Made by a program: the position numbers and the translations under genes. DNA of 20,000 nucleotides from Eremomyces bilateralis CBS 781.70. Lineage: Eukaryota. Below the pieces are notes generated by a model. The model was given only the letters and a program-made list of their open reading frames with translations, had not been told where the DNA came from and did no database searches. Below, one piece after another: positions 3,234 through 20,000 of this stretch (positions are counted from its first letter, which is position 1; each line of letters starts with the position of its first letter). The stretch lies in the NCBI GenBank assembly GCA_010015585.1, contig ML975151.1; one strand, 5' to 3'.

Positions 3234-4547
3234 GGAAGGGCGATACCGGAAACATATCGCATCCCCAGGAATCGAATGCCATCGTCCGCTCCCGTTCTGA
3301 AAGGCACACACATTGGCATCCATCTACTCAGGGCAATTTTCACGATCTCTCCATTACGAAATCCCCCAGCCGAGTCGGTGCCTCGGGAGTTGTCGGGTCA
3401 TCGCCATCCGTCTCGCAAACCTCTGTGTGTCCACCATCCCCAACAGCCTGGAATTACTCGGCAATAAGAATAAAGTAGAGGTACTTACGTACCCTGATGG
3501 GCACGGATAGTGGATCAGACGCACGCACATGCTGAATTCATGATTAACATTGAAGATGCTCAGGAAGCTCGCTTGCTTCGGTTGCTCGGGCTATGAGTCT
3601 ATGACGAGATGGATGTATCAAATGCTGTAATGACGTAGTCCTTTTTTTGCACGACAACTGAATTAACAAGAGCCTGAAACCGGCACCATAAGGTAGATTC
3701 TCGCAAAAAGTACTCCGACATCCGAGAGCCAGACAGCCATCCATTCCTCCGCCTCAAGATCTCACCTCCTACCCCCCGCAAGCCGTAGATCTCCCTCCCC
3801 CTCCCGAGTCCCGCATCTCACGCATCCCGACATGGATATACCCCTCCCCTGCCCCCGTTCCGTTCCTGCATGTTGCATTTTCGTGATCCCGGGGCCAGAT
3901 GAGTCTGCGATTCCTTAATGACCCGAACGGCCGCAGGTGGTGAAGCCGCGCGCCGGGATATCGACGCCTGAGATGCGGGCGGCAACGCTTAATGTCGGGT
4001 TGTGGATATTACTCTCGTCGACGGGGAAACGGAGGGATGGCTGATTGTGGCTGCGGGACGGTTGGCTTAGATGCACGCTGGGGGGATGGAAGGTGGTCTG
4101 GAGCGTGGACGTTGCCTTGATCACAGAAAATCGTCCTGTATTACATCGTGAGATTCAATCCCGATATACTTACCCGTTTACGATCCCCGCTTCATGCGCC
4201 AGATGGACGACTTGGTGAGCATGGTTGGCAACGACGATGCATGGCTGAGGGTTCGGATCCTACCGATAGCCATTAATCTCATCAAACGAAGCGCACCGTG
4301 ATCCAGGGAAAGACATTCAGACAACCGACTCTTCACTTCTCGTGCTAAGGCAAACTAGGTAATTTACACATCCTCCGAACCGCGGGCCTTGAACTCGAGA
4401 TTTTTCCCATAACGCGAACAAACAACGGTAGAAAGTGGAACAAACAAACAGAAAAGTCAAATCGAGAAGATTACCGCGATCCCCGGTGTTGGGTATTCAG
4501 CCTGGAAAACTGAAAACGAAAAGTGGGCGCGGATGCGGGGGTTTGCA

Positions 4548-4600
4548 AATCGCAATCGCAATCGCGTCGCTTTCACCTCTATCCATCCATCCATCCATCC
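4548..4600. repeat. Microsatellites (AATCGC)x3 and (ATCC)x5 downstream of the clathrin stop codon (likely 3' UTR)
   Basis: aatcgcaatcgcaatcgc at ~4548-4566 and atccatccatccatccatcc at 4581-4600. Confidence 0.75.
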
Positions 4601-4712
4601 TCTTTGGATGGGGTCTTTCGTCGTCGTTACGTGATTGGGTTCCCAATGTGCCGAAATGCACCACCGCACCTCCACTCGTATGATCCATCTTACTCCCTCC
4701 AAGCTCTCCATT

Positions 4713-7700
4713 TTAGAATCCCCTCAGGCCCGTCGCCTGCGGCATGACGCCGTTCGGCTGGACGAACCCGCCGCTCATCGGCGCGGGGCTGGACGCCTGC
4801 TGCGGGACGGATCCCTGGGTCAGGAGCAGCCGACTGCCGCCTAGGATCGGGGTTTCGTCCTCGTCTTGCTTCTGCGTAGCCTCGCGGGCTTTGCGCTCTT
4901 CGTTGTCTTTTTGGAGGAGGGAGATGGTGGCGGTTTGTTGGGCGAGCATGTTGATCATGAAGGGCTAGGTGGGGGGTTAGTAGGTGTGCGTGGAGAAGAG
5001 GGAAGGGGGGAGAACTTACCATAGTGTAGTCGTGGAGACCGCTCCTCCAGGAGATCTCGAGGATCACATCCGGTCGGATGAGCTCGTAGCACGCGTACAG
5101 CATACCAACATAGCACTCGCGGCTGCCAATATCGACAAAGTACCTCAACAGCTCTTCCACCACCGGCGGCTTCCCGGACATGGCGGCCGTCTCGATCGCG
5201 TCCTTGAACAGCTTGTCCTGCTTCGACAGCGCGATGCTCTTGTCCCACCGCCTGTTCTTGCGCCAGATGGTCGCCGCGATCTGTCGGAAGAAGACGAGGT
5301 CGTGCTTCTCGAGCCGCTGCGCCAGCTCCGTCGAGTCATAGTTGTCGAAGTTCTCGACCGAGTCGCGCAGCGTCTTGTAGTCCTCCTCCTCGATCAGCAG
5401 GTCGTGGATCGCGTGGTTGACCGCCTTCTTGTTCTGCGACTGCACGCTCATCAGGAACGGCTTGATGAGCGGAATGTTGTCGGATTTCTCGAACATGCGG
5501 ACGACGCGGTTGACGTCAATGCGCGGCGTCAGGACTTGGAGGAGGTCTGTGAGGAGCGGCGGTTGTTGCTCGAGGTAGAAGTTGACGGCGCGGTAGTAGA
5601 TTTCCAAGTTCGCTACCTTGACGATGGTGTCTTTGAAGGAATGATGTTCCCACGCGTCGGACGCTCGCTCCATCATGGCTAGTGCAGCATTGTCCCACTC
5701 GTCATAGTGGCAGTACAGGAATACCAGTTCCGGCCAGAGGTGGGCGTCTTCGCACGCCTTCAGCATCTTGGGGATGTTGATACGAGACCAGAAGAGACGC
5801 AGGTGCTCCATGACACGATCGGGGTGATATTTCGAGAGCGCAATGCCCAACTCGGTGAACATGCCCATGTGGGCACGTTCCAAGCTGAGTCCGTTGCTGA
5901 GCAGGTCAATGAGCTGATCGAAGTAGCCGCCGCGCTCATATTGGCGAACAATGTGCTGGAGCTCGTCGGCATGGACAATCAGGTTGAGACCGCAGATCTG
6001 AGCGAGACGGAACTCCCCCTTCTCAATACACGCGTCGTTGACCTCCTTCCACACCTTGGTGCTATTGGCCTTGCGGGCCGACTCGACCGCAGCCTGGTAG
6101 TCGTTGAGGTGGACATGAGTCGTGGCAAGCTTCGCCCAGTTCGAGATGGACGAGTAGAAGATCTTGGCGGCCTCGAAGTATCCCTCCTCATAAGCCTTGT
6201 CACCTGACGCTTCCACGTCCGCGACGTTCGTTGAGCGAAGGAAGTCCTCGAGTTCCGGAAGCTGGTCGAGGCGAGCGTAGCAGAAAGCTAGGCCAGTGTC
6301 GATCGGAGGTTCGCGGAGGGTCTTTCGAGCCATCCGCAAATATTTCACGAGGTCTTCGTCCTTGCCGGCGCGGGTTGCAACCTCAATGACCTCGTTGTAA
6401 TTAGAAGGATCGCCGGCGCGGATGTATGACTCGATCGAATCGGTGACCCGAACGCCATCCAACTGAGCCTTCGCAACCAAGCTCCACACTTCGGGAGTAT
6501 CAACACGATCGGCATATTCCTGAGCACGATCGATGCTGACGACATGTTCGACGAGAACATTGGTGGCCGCCGTGTAGTTGTTATTCTTGTTGTAGATCTC
6601 GAATGCTTCCTCGTACATTCCTTGTCCGATACACTCCTGTGCAATTGCATCTGGTTCGTAGGCATTGAGGTCCCGGACATAGCCCATGACTCGCGCCTTG
6701 TCTGCTTTGCAGGCAGTGATGATGAGCAAGTTCTGCAGCACCTTGTCCTCGTTGAACGGCGATGGCTCAAGGACGATCTTCTCCAGGAGCTCGATCAAAT
6801 CGGACGGCATGTCGTTCATCATGAAAGACTTGACCGCGACCGAGACCTTGGTCGGGTCGGTTGATTCGGGAACCGCGGTGGAGATGACCTGGTCAACCAA
6901 AGACCTTCGGTGCATATTGTTGGCGCTCAGCACGAAACCCCAGACTTCGGCATCACCGCGGTCGAGGAGGTATCGGGCTTGTGCCTTGAACATGGAGTTC
7001 TCATTGGTGATGCTGATCAACTCCAGGTCATTCTGGCCCTTCTGGTACGCAATGTACGCGAGGTTGGGATCGCGCTTCTCACAGTACTTGCCGACAACAA
7101 CCGTGTCGTACATGTCATTCTCTTTCAGGAACTTCTCAGGGTTGCTGTTGCTGTCGATGTAGATCTTGGCGAGAGCGTTGTAAACGGCTTGCTGTTGGTT
7201 GCCAGCCTCGAGGGTTTGCTCGAGGAAGGGAAGCAACAGCTTGAGTCGGTTTCGCGTTTCGACTTCAGCCACAAGCTCATCGATCGGGACAGACGAGGGA
7301 TTGACGGACGCAAGCAATCCCGTGATAACACCTTCATCACAGTCAACGTCCAGGAGACCCCCAATTACGGCCGGAGTACGCCCAGGGTTGATGCGCTGGA
7401 CATACGCCTCGATCGACTTGAAATGCTGGTTCTTGTAGAGATATAGCACCAGGTCGTGAACGAAGTTGAATCGGTCGCAAACGATCATCAGCGGGAGTTG
7501 GTTGGTGAGATTCGCCTCTTTGAGGAAGTTCTTGACCTTCTCCGGATCGTAGAAGTTGCTTTCCCTGCAGACACGCTCCACTTCATTAAACTGCTGCATT
7601 CTCGTCGCGGCCTCGATGTACTTGAAATTGACGTCCTTGTCTTCGCTCACATTGACGATGCCACCAAGGTAGTAGTAAAGACCCTCCGCCGTTCGATATT

Positions 7701-10043
7701 TCTCGAACAGGTCAATGATCCGTGTGGGTCCAAGGAGATCCGAGTACTTTTGTGCGATGCGGATGACCGACTGGAGATTCTGGCGAATGTTCACGCGAAG
7801 CATCTCGTTCAGGCAATCGAATGAGAGATCGACTGTCAAATGGCCAAAGTAGTTGATCAGCCACTCCTCGGGAAGCTTGTCGGTATGGACAATGATTCGC
7901 TTGATGACGGCGTGGTCCTCGGTGTGCTCAAGAGCGCGAGTGTAAAGCCCGGCACCTTCGCACAATTGCGCGATACGTGCCTTGTCATAGTGGGAGAACA
8001 TTTCGTTTCCAAGGATCGCATCAGCAACTTGAGGAGCATTTAGCAGGTTCATTTCCAAGAGCTTGGTCTGTAGATGAGCGTGCTCGGGAAGATTGGGCGC
8101 CAGAACGTCCAGAAGGAAAGCTGTCGCGCCCTGGAGGTTTCCTTGGGATTGGAAGATATCCACGACTCGGTCGAGATCGACCAAGGGTCCCTCGGGCTGC
8201 TTCGCCAGGCTGATCGCAAATTCGGTGGATTGGTTGGGGTTCACTCGGACAATATGCTGCAGGAGCACCGTGTAATCGGGTCGATAGCCAGCCTTTTGCG
8301 CATAGGGCACAATCTCGTCGAATCGTCCCAGTTCAGCGTAAGACGCCACGACCTTCTGGGCAGCATTGGCTCGCTCATAGATCTGAAGCGCAAGTCCGAG
8401 ATCATGAGGTCGAACGATGTCACCCAGTTCCTCTGAGCAGTCCAGCTTGCCTTCTTGAAGCCACTTCTCCAGCAAATGCTTCCGATTCTGGGAGAGAACC
8501 GGCCGCACCAGCTCAATGGTTTCATACTGATTCAACCCACCTTTGTCTAACAGGATTCCGAAATATTGGAGGATGACGGAGAGCTGTCCAGATTGCGCAG
8601 GGACTTGTTTGAGGCGGTCGATGGTCGCAGGGGTTCGCAGGAAACCACGTGGAGAGTTCGCGGCGGTTTTGGCGGCATCGGCGAATTGATTGGCATTCAA
8701 CAATTGCTCGAATCGTTGTTGGTAGAGGTTGTCCGCACCCGGTAACCCACCCCTCGAGGCCAGTTTGTAGGCCAACTCGGCGTTTGCGGGGTTCTGAAGA
8801 AGGTAGGGAACGACGGCTTCCTCGTCCACGCTGACTGAGAGGACTTGGCCTTTCCGGTTGACACCGACGATACCTGACGACTCAGAATCGGGAGATGTGA
8901 CGAAGATCGTCTCGCTCGAAATGCGGTTCATGAAAATGCAAGTCCCGGTTTCGAGATCATACAGGTGAATGAAGCCGTACTTGGTGACGAGGTAGATGAT
9001 GCCGTACTTCTTGGATACCTGCATCGCCACTGGGAAGTCGTTGGTGGCTTCGGGAGGGAAGTAGACGTCGACATTCTTCTTCTGGAATTGGGGGTTTCCG
9101 GCTTGATGATCGATCTCAACCACGTGCAGTTTGGCCCCGGTAGCGGTGCGAACGGCGAATGTGAACAGCTTGGAGTCTGCTGGTGCTCCCTCCAATCGGA
9201 CGGTGCCGAAGGCGGCAGCGTGCCCTTCGATCGACTGGCTGATGCCACGAGCTTTTGAGTACAGTTGCATCGCACCGACGACACGGCCTTGTTGTTGTGA
9301 AATGCCTACAACCACGGACCACTGGGCATCGTCGCTCACTCGGTAGTTGATGATTTGACAGCCCTAGACATCACATTAGTCGAGACCGAAGCAACCATGG
9401 CCGGTAACATACCGATAGGTTGGCATTTCGCTCAAACACCTTGCCTGGTGAAGCGGTAGTGGGATCGAAGACGTCCCAATGATAAACGGCCGTGTCGGTG
9501 ACAAGACCAAGGGTGCGATCATCGAACCATTTCCAGAACTGGACATCTTCGTTCATCGTCGCAGCACCCATCTTGCTCTTCTGCTCGAGATTGAAGATTT
9601 GTAGGGTCCGACCTTGTGCCTTCAGTGCTATGATTTGTTTGTTGAAGTGCATGATAGCACTGTCGGCCTTGATCGGGCGTCGAATAACATTGTTGTTATT
9701 CTTGAGGTCGATGATGATGACTTCCGGCGACGCATTATCGTCCACCTTTTGCCGGATACAGATGTAGTGGTCGGATTCTAAGGTCTGAAGCGCCCAACGT
9801 TAAGTTCACTCCCAATAATGCCATCGGGATAGACTTACACAAGTGTTGAACCCGATCGATTGAGGCTACAGTTCTGTGAGCACTCCCTTCACCGGACGCT
9901 ACGGACCACATGGAACTGGCGCGCTACTCACAAGGACATCAATCTGCGTTAACTACACAATGTCAGTAAGGATCCACATCAGCATCGGGGAGAAATTCGC
10001 GTACCTGGAGAAGCTCCGTGAACTTTATGGGTAACGGGGCCAT
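4713..10043 (-). CDS. CHC1: Clathrin heavy chain (~1684 aa). Exons 10043-10005, 9952-9932, 9865-9839, 9784-9413, 9363-5020, 4964-4713
   Basis: MAPLPIKFTELLQ/LTQIDVL/PQSIGFNTC/TLESDHYICIRQK...RRPIKADSAIMH.../GCQIINYR...GAMQLYS...SIEGHAAAF...CHCR repeats...ERAHMGMFTEL...LHDYTM/PFMINML...GF*. All five introns are GT..AG and phase 0; exon lengths 39, 21, 27, 372, 4344 and 252 nt. Confidence 0.98.
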
Positions 10044-15182: not shown

Positions 15183-16722
15183 ATGGACGATCAACCCACC
15201 GGCCCGTCCTACCAAGTGAGAGTACGGCTCTCCACTCGCCATGACGATCTTCAGCTGCCCGAGGACAGCCAGACCATTCTCGTCTCGACAAGTTAGTACC
15301 ATGTAAAACCACCTGGGCAACATTGCGATCTCGAACTGCAGACTGACAAGATCGGCAGACCTCAAAAGATATGCTCTTTCAACACTGGTCAACTCGCTCC
15401 TCGAGTCGGAGAAGCCCGTGCCGTTCGAATTCCTCATCAACGGTCAATTTCTGCGGACCACCCTAGATGAGTTTCTCACCGCGAACGGCATATCGGCGGA
15501 AACCACATTATCGGTCGAATATGTTCGTGCGCTGCTGCCGCCGACGCAGACAGCGACGTTCCCTCACGATGACTGGGTGAGCTCGGTGGATGTCCTCTCT
15601 GCAACATCTCCCGCGGCACGATGGACGAGAGACGCCCACATCGACGGCAGCCGACAGCGCATCCTTTCCGGCAGTTACGACGGGCTCGTCCGGGTGTGGA
15701 ACACGTCCTCCGAGCTCGTCGCCACGTCTCCATCGCTCGGAAATGGAGGACATACCGGCGGGGTCAAGTCCGTCAAGTTCCTATCCCCCACAAAGCTCGT
15801 CTCCGCCTCCCTCGACCGCACCATCCGGATATGGAGCTACAAAGAATCCACCACCTCTCCCGCCACCGCGACCATCGACCCCGCCTTCGAGCTCTATGGC
15901 CACCAATCCAGCGTCGACAGTATCGCCGTCCACGGCCCCTCCGGCCGCATCCTCTCCGCCTCCTCCGACCACACCGTCGGCGTCTGGACCGCCCACAAGT
16001 CCTCCGCCCCGGAAGCCCCTACTGACCTCCTCCCCTCCTCCCTCCCCAGCTCCAAGCGCCGCAAACTCTCCCGCGCCGGCCCCACCGTCCCCCAGCGCGG
16101 TCCGCTCGCACTGCTCGCCGGCCACGCCGCTCCGGTCACAGGCGTCGCGTTCTCGCCCACCGCGCCCAACGTCGCGTACTCGGTCTCGCAGGACCACACG
16201 CTGCGCACATGGGATCTGCTAGCGGTGCCGGACGCGCCGAATACAGCGGAGGTGTCGTCGCGGATGGTGGCGCATCCGCTGCTGTCGGTGTGCGTGATGC
16301 CGGGGTTGAGCCTGGTGGCGGCGGGGACGAGCGCGCGGTCGGTGGTATTGATAGATCCGCGGGAGGGGGCGGCGAGGGTGGTGGCGAAGACGTTGAAAGG
16401 GCATGCGAATTCGGTGGTGGCGTTAGCGCAGAGCCCGGTGAGCGAGTATGGGTTGGCCAGTGCGAGTCATGATGGGGAGGTGAGGGTTTGGGATGTGAGG
16501 GGGGGAAGTATCGCAGTGCAGGGTGGGGATTCTCAGGGCGATGAGGGGAAGGGGTTGGTGGTTGAGAGTGTCTTTACGCTACCGAGAGAGAGTATGAAGG
16601 GGAAGCCGCGGAAGGTGGCGGGCGAGGGGGTGAAGGTGCTTGGAATGGCGTGGGATAGGGATATTGGGATCGTGAGTGGTGGAGAGGATAAGATGATACA
16701 GATCAATAGGGAGGCTGAGTAG
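15183..16722 (+). CDS. YTM1: Ribosome biogenesis protein Ytm1/WDR12 (NLE/UBL domain + WD40; ~490 aa). Exons 15183-15291, 15359-16722
   Basis: QVRVRLSTR...ILVST/NLKRYALSTLVNSLLESEKPVPFEFLINGQFLRTTLDEFLTANGISAETTLSVEYVRALLPP...HDDWVSSV...ILSGSYDG...IVSGGEDKMIQIN; intron 15292-15358 (GTTAGT..CTGAC..CAG). Confidence 0.95.
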
Positions 16723-16958
16723 CTGTCTTCTTCTCTAATAATGCAAATGTTACTTCACATTCCAGCTTTGGTTGTATATTAACCCAGCATCTTCTGATCA
16801 ACGTGGCCTGGCGAAGCTATCATTGAGTACGGCGTAGATACGGTAGCCAACCTCCATACCTACTTCGACAACAATAGTAGGTTGTCTAGCAAAGCATTTC
16901 CTAATAACTACCCACCGTTCCTTCAACCGGAAGTTTCCTTTTTCCTTTTATGGAATAT

Positions 16959-17007
16959 CGTTGTGTGCTACCAAAATTGCCTCCAAAAACGGAGGTTTCT
17001 GACGCCG
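16959..17007 (+). repeat. 49-bp direct repeat, copy 1 (copy 2 at 19029-19077)
   Basis: cgttgtgtgctaccaaaattgcctccaaaaacggaggtttctgacgccg vs cgttgtgtgctaccgaacttgcctccaaaaacggctgtttctgacgccg: 45/49 identical, no gaps. Confidence 0.92.
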
Positions 17008-17018
17008 GGACTATCCTA

Positions 17019-17241
17019 ATGAGAAGGGCACACAAGTCGCACCGCTACGCCAAAAAGGATACACCACGAGACTCTGCGTATTGTGAATCGCTCTATACGG
17101 ACGACCTAACCCCAGCATTATACTCTATCACAGACGCGACTAAGAGGGGAGTCGGCTATCTATAGAAGAAGTGGACAGAGTATGTGTTCAAGGTTGAGAT
17201 TTACCAAGTTCCTGACTGTCTATAACTCTGATCAGATATTT
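17019..17241 (+). pseudogene. Decayed 5' gene fragment (exon 17019-17179, intron 17180-17235), possibly the N-terminus of a DUF3435 tyrosine recombinase (Starship captain-like)
   Basis: MRRAHKSHRYAKKDTPRDSAYCESLYTDDLTPALYSITDATKRGVGYL*KKWTE/Y with a GTATGT donor and CAG acceptor; internal TAG at 17163 (plausible CAG>TAG). The family guess rests on recalled N-terminal architecture only. Confidence 0.4.
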
Positions 17242-17326
17242 TTGGTGGTAGTAGCAAATATTCAACTGAGAACGTTGAAGACTGAAGTGGGGAAAGGTTC
17301 CGTGTGAACAGCAGTTGGACACGGGT
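17242..17326 (+). rRNA. Isolated ~85-bp fragment of 28S/25S LSU rRNA gene (non-functional insertion)
   Basis: TTGGTGGTAGTAGCAAATATTCAACTGAGAACGTTGAAGACTGAAGTGGGGAAAGGTTCCGTGTGAACAGCAGTTGGACACGGGT matches the conserved eukaryotic LSU segment starting at the LR7 primer site (AGATCTTGGTGGTAGTA). The flanks are not rDNA. Confidence 0.93.
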
Positions 17327-17402
17327 CGCTCCGAATCTCTGACCCCGATGCCCGCCTGCGAGACATCAGCAGACGTCGCGAAGCTCCGTATAAAGGTTTC
17401 AA

Positions 17403-18750
17403 TTATATATCCTTCAATATCTTGATGGTCCTAGCCTCGAATCCGCATTAATCCCACAATTATGTAAGTGCGTGTCTCATACCGGGGCCAGTCCGCATCC
17501 GTTAGCTCTAACAAAAGCGAAATAGTGCGCAGATCAGGTTTAAGGGCACTCCAGTCTTCCAGTCATAGTGCGATGATGTTGTAAAGCGCCGTATCATCTT
17601 ATTCATTCTCTTCTTGCTCTTCTAAGTTGTCGGCGGCGATAATCAAGGACTGAATATGCCTAGGAGCCACGTCTTTGAGCTGGACCGCGGTGGCCGGTAT
17701 GAAACTAGCTGCCAAGAACTGCAATGGGATCTCAAGCCTTTCTAGTTGACAGAAACCAACGAGAGCATTTAAAGATCCCTTTGTGTTCAGAAGTGGAGGG
17801 TAAAGGTACCTCCAACTGTCACATTGCGTGGAAATAGTCAACTCTGTTAACGTATTGCGAACGTGAAATAGAGAGGTCCCAACCTTATCAAGTTCAACCA
17901 GGGATGTATTTGGCGCATGTTTGGCTTCTTCGCTGTAGTTGAACACCCATCGTAGAGTTTTGAGTTCCGGAGTCACCGAGAGCAGACGAGAGAGATGTGT
18001 CTCTCGGATTGAAGCCAAGCTAAATGATGTGATTGTTGACGGGTTAGGGGACATGTGTATAGGCCAGTTCAACGTGACCGAATTATTGAGAAACGGAAAG
18101 ACGCTGGACTTTTAGCAAGTATAAAAGGGTAGGACATTCGCACTGTTTCTACCATAGACATCCCCAAGATAATGATAGTCTCTAAGCTTATAAGTCACTT
18201 CCCGGAGATGCTGAAAAGTGGGCAACCCATGGTCGCCTTTCTTGCATACAGCCGAGTTAAGGAGCATACCCAAGAAGCACACTCTGTTTTGCAGAGTTTG
18301 GACCGAGAATGAGATATCTCAGGTAGTGTAGCTGTGACAACAGAAGCGCGACAAATGCATCCATCGTGCCGCTGCGGAGTTCCTTACCCAACGATGAGCG
18401 TAAGTCACCCTGGTCGTCTCGATGACTTCCACGGTATCGTTCAGGCTCAACCCAGCAATGGGGATTTTGGGAGGAGCATCGCCCTGATACGGCCCAGGGA
18501 ATGATTACCTCCAAGGAGAGCCACGCTTCGAACATAAGCGGCTGTCTCCGGTCTACGCAGGATGGTGCGCAAAAAAGCAGCAATATGAGGAGGATCTTCT
18601 GGCCATGACCATCCGATTTTCGAGTACAGAAAAGGTACAGTAGTTGCACGTGAGCCTTTACTAACGAGAGACAATGCATGGAGATCGGCTCGCGATGTGT
18701 ATTAGTTGGAGTACAGGGCCCAAGACATCATCTCCAAGGGGGACCAACAG
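17403..18750 (-). pseudogene. Pseudogene of a fungal F-box-type (F-box + LRR-like) protein
   Basis: Joined across frames: SRADLHALSLVSKGSRATTVPFLYSKI...FLRTILRRPETAAYVRSV / ELRSGTMDAFVALLLSQLHYLRYL / LPTFQHLREV / IRETHLSRLLSVTPELKTLRW...QLERLEIPLQFL...ENE*DD...AL*LEDW. Several frameshifts, and stops at 17601, 17565, 17462 and 17450. The 5' end is approximate. Confidence 0.75.
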
Positions 18751-19028
18751 AGACTCTCGTAGGACTATCTGTTATATATCAGCATTTGGTATCTGTTCGC
18801 CAACGTGCGTCAGCCTGCATACCTGCCTCGTCATTTGCGACGACATGAGGTGAAGCGTAAGGGAGTGGGGTAAGATTTCGGATCATCTTTCGCGCAGACT
18901 TGTAATGAAGTCAGAACCTCAAAGATAGGCGTATCTTACATACGGTTTCATTCGTGATACCTAATCTACAGGAAAGGAAGAAGGAAAGGTAAGATGGGGC
19001 GTTGTAGTGATAGAGAAGTACGCAGTAG

Positions 19029-19077
19029 CGTTGTGTGCTACCGAACTTGCCTCCAAAAACGGCTGTTTCTGACGCCG
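19029..19077 (+). repeat. 49-bp direct repeat, copy 2
   Basis: 45/49 identical to 16959-17007, same orientation, offset 2070 bp. Confidence 0.92.
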
Positions 19078-19124
19078 TTTTCAGAGGGTTTTCCGCCTAG
19101 GCGAAACGCTCCTATTTCGTTAAT

Positions 19125-19424
19125 AGATGCTTCCGCAAAGTCAAGTACTGCGTCTAGGACGTAGCTGTCAACTGTCCAGCTCTTGGTTCTTCCTTGATCC
19201 TAAGGTCTCCCTCTAAGCATTCCGGTGATACTGTTGAAAGCGTCTCCTATCTTCTTCTGAGGCTGTTGTCTTAGCTCTCTGGGATTCGGACAGTCCACTA
19301 GGACATGTACCACCGTCTCTCTTGCTCCGCATTCGTATTAGTCATCATCTCGAAAGCCGTGGATTTTGGCATGAGATGCAAGCCACGAGTGCCCTGTTCT
19401 GAGCTGCGTTAGTAGGTATGTACG
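19125..19424 (-). mobile_element. Non-LTR retrotransposon (Tad1-like LINE) ORF2 C-terminal remnant with zinc-knuckle region
   Basis: RTYLLTQLRTGHSWLASHAKIHGFRDDD*YECGARETVVHVLVDCPNPRELRQQPQKKIGDAFNSITGMLRGRP*DQGRTKSWTVDSYVLDAVLDFAEAS. QLRTGH and (C)xC...ETVxHVLxDC are characteristic of the fungal LINE ORF2 end; two in-frame stops. Confidence 0.88.
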
Positions 19425-19656
19425 CCCTGTTCCTCTGTCGAGACTGCCAGAGCAGCAAGCAGGGGAGACGGGATGGGAGAGGCACTATTCCTTAAACACT
19501 CTGAATAATAGCACCAATCAGGTTTTAAAGCCTTTGGATTTCTAATCAAACATTACTCATCGGCTATCGCCACTCGTGCTATTCATGTAGTATATAAAAG
19601 ACACCATCTGTAAGGAAGGTGGGCGGGGAGGAGGTTAAATAAAGCTTAAGGAAATA

Positions 19657-20000
19657 TCACAAAGTAAATTCCATGGTCATAACTCTTCCAGATAAATATC
19701 CGAAAGCAACAATATCCCCATACACAGCAATGCAGTGTGGCCGATACTCGGGAGGAAGCCAAAGGATCCGCTCTGTATGGCTACTCACCCAGTGGTCATT
19801 GACAAAGATAGAAGATGGATGTTGTATACTGGTCACACCTATATCACCAGAGAGAGGTGGTAAAATAGGCAAGGATCCACGGTCCGTCTGGAGAGAGGTA
19901 CCGTCATCGGAGAAAGAGAGAGCGTAGACGATGTTTCCAATATCGAGCGTCTGCCGCAGCGCGCCCGACCCGGCGTCCCACAGCTTGACCGTCCCGTCCC
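19657..20000 (-). CDS. C-terminus of a HET-E/NWD-type NACHT-WD40 protein (fungal NLR); gene extends beyond the right edge
   Basis: Open frame DGTVKLWDAGSGALRQTLDIGNIVYALSFSDDGTSLQTDRGSL...SIFVNDHWV...RILWLPPEYRPHCIAVYGDIVAFGYLSGRVMTMEFTL*. The last WD repeat plus the LWLPPEYRP...GRV tail is typical of NWD proteins; the NACHT domain itself is not visible in the window. Confidence 0.85.
   Translation of the reverse strand, partial: DGTVKLWDAGSGALRQTLDIGNIVYALSFSDDGTSLQTDRGSLPILPPLSGDIGVTSIQHPSSIFVNDHWVSSHTERILWLPPEYRPHCIAVYGDIVAFGYLSGRVMTMEFTL

Follow-up and report, generated by a model that had tools for sequence, protein, structure and literature searches.

A host-identical 85-base piece of 28S rRNA sequence in the spacer of two convergent fungal genes: a likely one-off capture at a repaired break

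The stretch of 20,000 nucleotides analysed here (hereafter the window; Eremomyces bilateralis CBS 781.70, contig ML975151.1) belongs to the nuclear genome of a filamentous fungus and contains housekeeping genes, including those for biotin carboxylase, eIF3 subunit j, a ZW10/Dsl1-like protein and the clathrin heavy chain (4690-9339, minus strand). The last exon of YTM1, which encodes a 60S ribosome-biogenesis WD40 protein, occupies positions 15307-16722 of the plus strand and was assigned through its NLE domain (E 1.7e-16), its WD40 repeats and its similarity to the YTM1 chains of the PDB (E 4e-127). From position 16723 on, the GC content falls from about 0.55 to 0.47 and long open frames vanish. 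The gene that converges on YTM1 is a decayed member of the F-box/LRR family (17409-18768, minus strand), which is interrupted by in-frame stops and frameshifts and has its projected stop codon at about 17373. A 170-residue frame of this pseudogene has 339 relatives, which carry F-box and LRR_15 domains. Its best full-length relative, P0002 (472 aa), is 65% identical, and residues 1-460 of this protein could be aligned by tblastn with positions 18768-17409 across several in-frame stops, two of which replace tryptophan codons, the frameshifts being found in the first third of the alignment. P0001, a 151-residue database entry, matches one open piece of the dead gene with 100% identity, which suggests that a pseudogene fragment was annotated as a gene. 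At the far end of the window, a WD40-repeat C-terminus of the type that ends fungal NLR proteins (19657-19998, minus strand) runs off the sequence.

The region around these two convergent genes also carries debris of mobile elements. A remnant of the C-terminal part of a non-LTR retrotransposon ORF2 (19122-19448, minus strand) displays 56-62% identity to proteins with RVT_1, RNase H and endonuclease domains and is broken by two in-frame stops. Its stop is followed directly by a 59-base sequence (19019-19077), of which a second, 86% identical copy is found on the minus strand at 16949-17007, downstream of YTM1. Contigs carrying this 59-base core reach depths of 3851-9046 in DNA runs as compared to about 152-263 for single-copy sequence, a depth ratio suggesting some 20-35 copies, and seven contigs from a second organism likewise carry the core, with an identity of 80-90%. 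The two copies in the window fold differently (z -1.95 and -1.62) and share no conserved hairpin. The core is probably the part of a LINE 3' UTR that is recognized by the reverse transcriptase. The copy downstream of YTM1 is adjoined by a second repeat family at 17005-17211, several copies of which were found at 80-90% identity in the contigs of public runs. This repeat is joined to the 59-base core in other copies as well (with a joint 17007->17051 in run X3), and its other genomic copies match the window only up to position 17210 or 17211. RIP indices of the repeat region 16723-17241 are RIP-like (TpA/ApT 1.17, CpA+TpG ratio 0.90) and those of the F-box pseudogene are not clearly so (0.80 and 1.17, respectively), these signals being too weak to date an insert.

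Beyond the end of the repeat and a spacer of 30 bases (17212-17241) lies the sequence of interest, a fragment of large-subunit (LSU) rRNA of 85 bases at 17242-17326 on the plus strand. It starts 520 bases downstream of the YTM1 stop codon and lies about 47-83 bases past the 3' end of the F-box pseudogene, within the spacer of the two convergent genes. An earlier note on this DNA had described the fragment as captured inside a decayed gene; since the pseudogene aligns from 18768 to 17409, the fragment is instead located in its 3' flank. The fragment is thus bordered by the repeat and the short spacer on one side and by the 3' flank of a pseudogene on the other.

The fragment is a real piece of eukaryotic 28S/25S rRNA. 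When positions 16500-18000 were searched against Rfam with cmscan, a single match to LSU_rRNA_eukarya was obtained (RF02543, 41.1 bits, E 5.6e-8). This score falls below the gathering score of 50 of the family, about 80 of the 3401 model positions being present. A scan of the whole window at gathering thresholds returned no Rfam match at all because the fragment is too short for the family cut-off. The genuine part of the alignment pairs window positions 17247-17327 with model positions 1456-1535, so that the 85 bases correspond approximately to model positions 1451-1535. In the reported alignment the match continued to position 17747, but this extension was bridged by an 'insert' of 382 bases and was rejected as showing no homology. 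In the consensus structure line of RF02543 both hairpins of the fragment are completely paired, in agreement with the earlier description of a true LSU rRNA segment whose two helices still pair. A free-energy test of the isolated 85-mer showed no stronger folding than in shuffled sequence (z 0.26), and the structural intactness of the fragment therefore reflects its rRNA identity and is not independent evidence of selection. Homology to rRNA ends at 17242 and 17326, and the locus is not a complete functional rRNA gene within an rDNA unit. A SNORD16-like match at 17569-17656 (plus strand) with 18.9 bits and an E-value of 2.8, as compared to a family cut-off of 45, is probably due to chance.

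Public sequencing runs were searched with window positions 16700-18200, and the contigs of four runs were aligned to 16900-17700. In X1, a DNA run, a contig of 317 bases (record 7) covers 17242-17326 with 0 differences and 0 gaps at a depth of 5907.7, whereas the single-copy contigs of the same run have depths of 152-175. Beyond the fragment this high-depth contig is unlike the window and, when compared with the downstream sequence of environmental loci, corresponds to normal LSU. Going by the depth ratio, the number of rDNA units would be about 34-39. Run X3 behaves as an RNA run, on account of its rRNA depth and of a GT..AG joint, its record merely guessing so. There the fragment is covered at a depth of 169,534-226,194 as compared to 314 for the left flank, the rRNA thus being about 540-720 times as deep as the flank. 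The fragment is therefore 85/85 identical to the high-copy, highly expressed LSU sequence of the host, and an identical donor exists elsewhere in the same genome (X1 record 7, depth 5908). This bears out the proposal that the piece derives from a functional rRNA or rRNA gene. By the refutation rule that the earlier note had itself set out, an exact match to the host removes a horizontal origin: with 0 mismatches to host rDNA, no foreign donor is called for.

The ends of the fragment could be mapped from the way in which the contigs break. The single-copy contigs entering from the left stop at 17271 in two studies (X1 record 1 and X3 record 17), and the one entering from the right starts at 17297 (X2 record 16, one run only); the left junction is accordingly seen in two runs from two studies and the right junction in X2. 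From each side, the flank contigs enter the fragment by exactly 30 bases. Contigs built from a k=31 graph break 30 bases inside the border of a repeat. Entry by 30 bases from both sides hence fixes the stretch shared with rDNA as 17242-17326 to the base. No joint skipping 17242-17326, as expected of an empty allele, was present in the contigs of the four runs, contigs being a form of data that drops rare variants. X4, the run from a different organism, leaves this part of the window uncovered. The identity to host rDNA, the exact ends and the genomic setting of the fragment are direct observations.

The exact 85-mer had 0 matches in metagenome contigs. A degenerate 44-mer in which the two covarying positions were left open retrieved at least 98 LSU loci from metagenome contigs, a sample and not a census. 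Among the 98 listed loci, the covarying pair is A/T in 86, G/C in 12 and C/G in none. The contrast that the earlier note had drawn between the A-U pair of S. cerevisiae and the C-G pair here is thereby borne out (A-U in 86/98), but the suggestion that the C-G pair may identify a foreign donor taxon is not, the pair being that of the host's own rRNA. Judged from these comparisons, the C-G pair represents a true covariation, which belongs to the host rRNA and not to the stray copy. As a separate observation, the helix TTCAAC...GTTGAA (17264-17278) is very conserved and its C-G pair is a lineage marker.

The same loci also delimit the fragment. When window positions 17100-17480 were compared by BLASTN with the 98 listed LSU loci, 98 alignments were obtained, 64 of which span exactly 17242-17326, the best match among these loci being 84/86 identical. 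The end coordinates proposed from inspection alone are consequently exact, being fixed both by contig breakpoints and by BLASTN ends. Ahead of the fragment, the native sequence is GCAGATCTTGGT in 93 of the 98 listed loci, and none of them has a non-native left context (0/98). An upstream extension was seen in only four of the 98 alignments and amounted to 16-31 bases in three; in the two that were inspected, it was reached only by way of gaps. When extension was anchored at the junctions and scored against six native LSU references, the left flank obtained 0 and the right flank 0-1. A longer stretch of decayed rDNA around a perfect core was rejected on these grounds, the gapped BLAST extensions being few and the anchored scores 0.

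The left junction had been proposed to carry microhomology in the form of the motif CAGAT. This motif is indeed present in the 30-base spacer (17233-17237) and also precedes the native rDNA stretch. It is, though, 4 bases off register from the junction, where the extension score is 0, and microhomology at the junction is thus unsupported. A 5-mer of this kind is expected by chance at a frequency of about 0.05, that is in one flank out of twenty, by a post-hoc estimate. No target-site duplication stood out either: the best direct repeats around the locus are 7-8-mers, which occur at chance frequency.

Taken together, a perfect copy of 85 bases with abrupt ends, lying in a gene-poor, repeat-filled spacer with no element gene, fits a single capture event. 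We consider it probable that the fragment is a young, neutral, one-off capture of host rDNA, or of a cDNA of the rRNA, at a repaired break, and that it has no function. We infer that a break would have arisen in the spacer between YTM1 and the now-dead F-box gene, that a short piece of host LSU rDNA or rRNA cDNA would have been captured there once and that the captured piece would then have been sealed in by end joining. As the fragment lies wholly within the mature rRNA sequence, a DNA donor and an RNA donor cannot be told apart. The one-off templated patch that had been put forward among the original ideas thus remains the best reading in the light of the exact host match. The hairpins and the C-G pair would have been kept because the insert is too recent to have mutated. 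Finding 0 changes in 85 bases limits the divergence since insertion to less than roughly 3.5% (exp(-85d) = 0.05). Set against the 80-90% identity of the neighbouring repeats and the stop-riddled F-box gene, this implies that the rRNA piece is younger than its surroundings, and its youth accounts for the 'structurally intact' appearance without any selection.

A coupling to LINE activity is a possible but doubtful alternative. A reverse transcriptase would have copied 28S rRNA by template switching or twin priming, giving rise to a chimeric retro-insertion together with the neighbouring 5'-truncated LINE-like fragment. The LINE-type core (16949-17007) and its linked repeat (17005-17211) do end 30 bases from the rRNA piece, the ORF2 remnant of the same family lies nearby (19122-19448), and LINE-linked repeats are carried by multi-kilobase contigs of the RNA run X3 (record 19, 3492 bases; record 20, 2595 bases). 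Moreover, chimeras of 28S and LINE-1 sequences exist in primates, as described in the available text of bioRxiv 10.1101/2025.02.02.635956. However, the LINE-derived fragment has its sense strand on the minus strand and the rRNA piece on the plus strand; this opposite orientation excludes simple template switching and leaves only the rarer twin priming, and we found no direct same-orientation fusion of the rRNA piece to a truncated LINE 5' end. The linked repeat does not abut the rRNA piece, from which it is separated by 30 unrelated bases, and the rRNA end lacks an A-tail. Nor is the LINE fragment together with the rRNA piece bracketed by a direct repeat that could represent a target-site duplication, the 8-mers around the pair being at chance level; the repeat pair 16793/17227 would leave the rRNA piece outside the insertion.

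An assembly problem appears unlikely to us. In this case the 85 bases would be the overlap left when a much longer rDNA insert, or the border of an array, was collapsed, or else two unrelated contigs would have been joined falsely through a shared rDNA end. The two junctions are never spanned by a single contig of the public runs, as is to be expected with k=31, and listed cover is lacking at 17327-17352 in X1 and at 17224-17277 in X2. The depth of the right flank in X3 (0-19 as compared to 314 on the left) could be listed on the same side, though it was not used as evidence. Against this explanation, each junction is supported by a real k-mer path in the public data, the left junction in two independent studies; with an rDNA unit measuring several kilobases, it would be an improbable coincidence for an array to begin and to break off inside one and the same stretch of 85 bases; and the flanks make up a coherent gene neighbourhood, in which the 3' ends of YTM1 and of the F-box pseudogene face each other. 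Least credible, with a very small probability in our estimation, is that the fragment represents the footprint of an rDNA-targeting element (Starship-like or R-type) or a piece gained from a different taxon by horizontal transfer, both of which had been raised initially. The rarity of the C-G pair (0/98 listed LSU loci) could speak for a foreign source, but the match to host rDNA with 0 mismatches contradicts it, and none of the listed environmental loci has a non-native left context. As to an element, DUF3435 and other recombinase domains were absent from all 85 frames tested, that is from 71 stop-to-stop frames of 16723-19700 and from 14 other ORFs of the window. The rRNA piece is moreover continuous, with non-rDNA sequence on both sides, and does not consist of two target halves around an element; the term '28S' has 0 occurrences in the text of a survey of Starships (PMC11162782). 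Targeting by an rDNA element at this fragment is thus unsupported here, albeit not formally refuted.

The capture of host rDNA at a repaired break, our preferred reading, has its closest counterpart in the Break-Ins of S. cerevisiae (Yu et al. 2018 in Nature, given as reference 179 in the available text of PMC6943134). According to the available sections of PMC11724301, inserts at yeast breaks come from all over the genome; in rad27 mutants most of them measure less than 100 bp, and in Dna2-deficient yeast rDNA is a frequent source. The fungal fragment resembles these inserts in being short (tens to hundreds of bases for Break-Ins), in coming from the same nuclear genome with the donor unchanged and in having abrupt ends; rDNA, which is a documented donor of Break-Ins in these sections, is the donor here too. 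In contrast to Break-Ins, which are recovered at induced breaks in the laboratory, often in mutants or stationary cells, the fragment is a natural fixed insertion in a filamentous fungus, for which the break and the repair pathway are putative.

Likenesses to other systems are more partial. Pseudogene fragments that derive from rDNA and lie dispersed in the genome have been described in humans (Robicheau et al. 2017, as cited in the available text of PMC10946416), and references to a human 28S retropseudogene and to orphons are listed in the available text of bioRxiv 10.1101/2025.02.02.635956. Like the human rDNA 'orphons', the fungal piece is a fragment of mature LSU rRNA far from the array, without promoter or function. 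The human fragments are mostly old and diverged, whereas the fungal one is identical to the current rDNA of its host and only 85 bases long. The primate 28S/LINE-1 chimeras comprise 18 loci of 50-482 nt, 83% of them in sense orientation, and antisense chimeras, described for tRNA, are attributed to twin priming, as far as the available text of the same preprint goes. With these chimeras, as described there, the fragment shares its nature as an internal piece of 28S, its length within the range of 50-482 nt and its position beside a truncated LINE; it differs from them in its opposite orientation, in the 30-base gap, in that a target-site duplication was not found and in the nature of the LINE, which here is a non-LTR element of a fungus and bears RNase H. 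The Starships that target 5S rDNA (Gluck-Thaler and Vogan 2024, PMC11162782) are alike only in involving the sequence of a ribosomal RNA gene, for the locus has neither a captain gene nor a split target, the sequence is from 28S and it is an insert rather than an insertion site. A non-exhaustive keyword search of the literature did not find dispersed 28S fragments in filamentous fungi, which is not a claim of absence. The fragment adds a natural case to a known kind of event and does not represent a new kind of system. Its value lies mainly in being clean and datable, the process having so far been studied for the most part in cancer genomes and at breaks induced in yeast; here, a break in a filamentous fungus would have been patched with part of the nucleus's most abundant repeat or RNA. 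It also calls for caution, as short-read graphs break at short perfect copies of rDNA that lie outside the array, and such copies can be mistaken for the targets of mobile elements or for horizontal transfer.

Finally, the position of a 28S piece downstream of a gene for 60S assembly deserves a comment. Record 17 of X3, an RNA contig of 1418 bases with a depth of 314, is collinear with the window from about 15854, in the YTM1 coding region, to 17271. Transcripts therefore extend into the fragment, a contig not being proof of a single transcript. The contig is also collinear across 17235, where a 3' splice site had been predicted just ahead of the fragment, and no joint is reported at that position, which speaks against the prediction. 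Some ribosomal proteins control their own mRNAs through rRNA-like structures. The 28S piece might in the same way have been retained as a regulatory rRNA mimic in the 3' region of the YTM1 transcript, an idea to which we give very little credence. If it were true, the native 28S hairpins could bind their cognate ribosomal protein or assembly factor and so tie the fate of the YTM1 mRNA to the free capacity for 60S assembly. The perfect identity of the copy suits a young neutral insert just as well as a mimic. Ribosome-biogenesis genes make up an estimated 2-3% of all genes, so that a 28S piece located behind a gene for 60S assembly is by default a coincidence.

Two minor observations concern the transcripts of this region. 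A GT..AG intron of 62 bases (17464-17525, plus strand) lies antisense to the F-box pseudogene and is evidenced by the joint 17463->17526 in one contig of X3 (depth 19.2); the transcript carrying it could be a spliced non-coding RNA or a product of read-through from YTM1. If X3 record 17 corresponds to a single transcript, the 3' region of YTM1, which would then include the antisense LINE debris, is unusually long.
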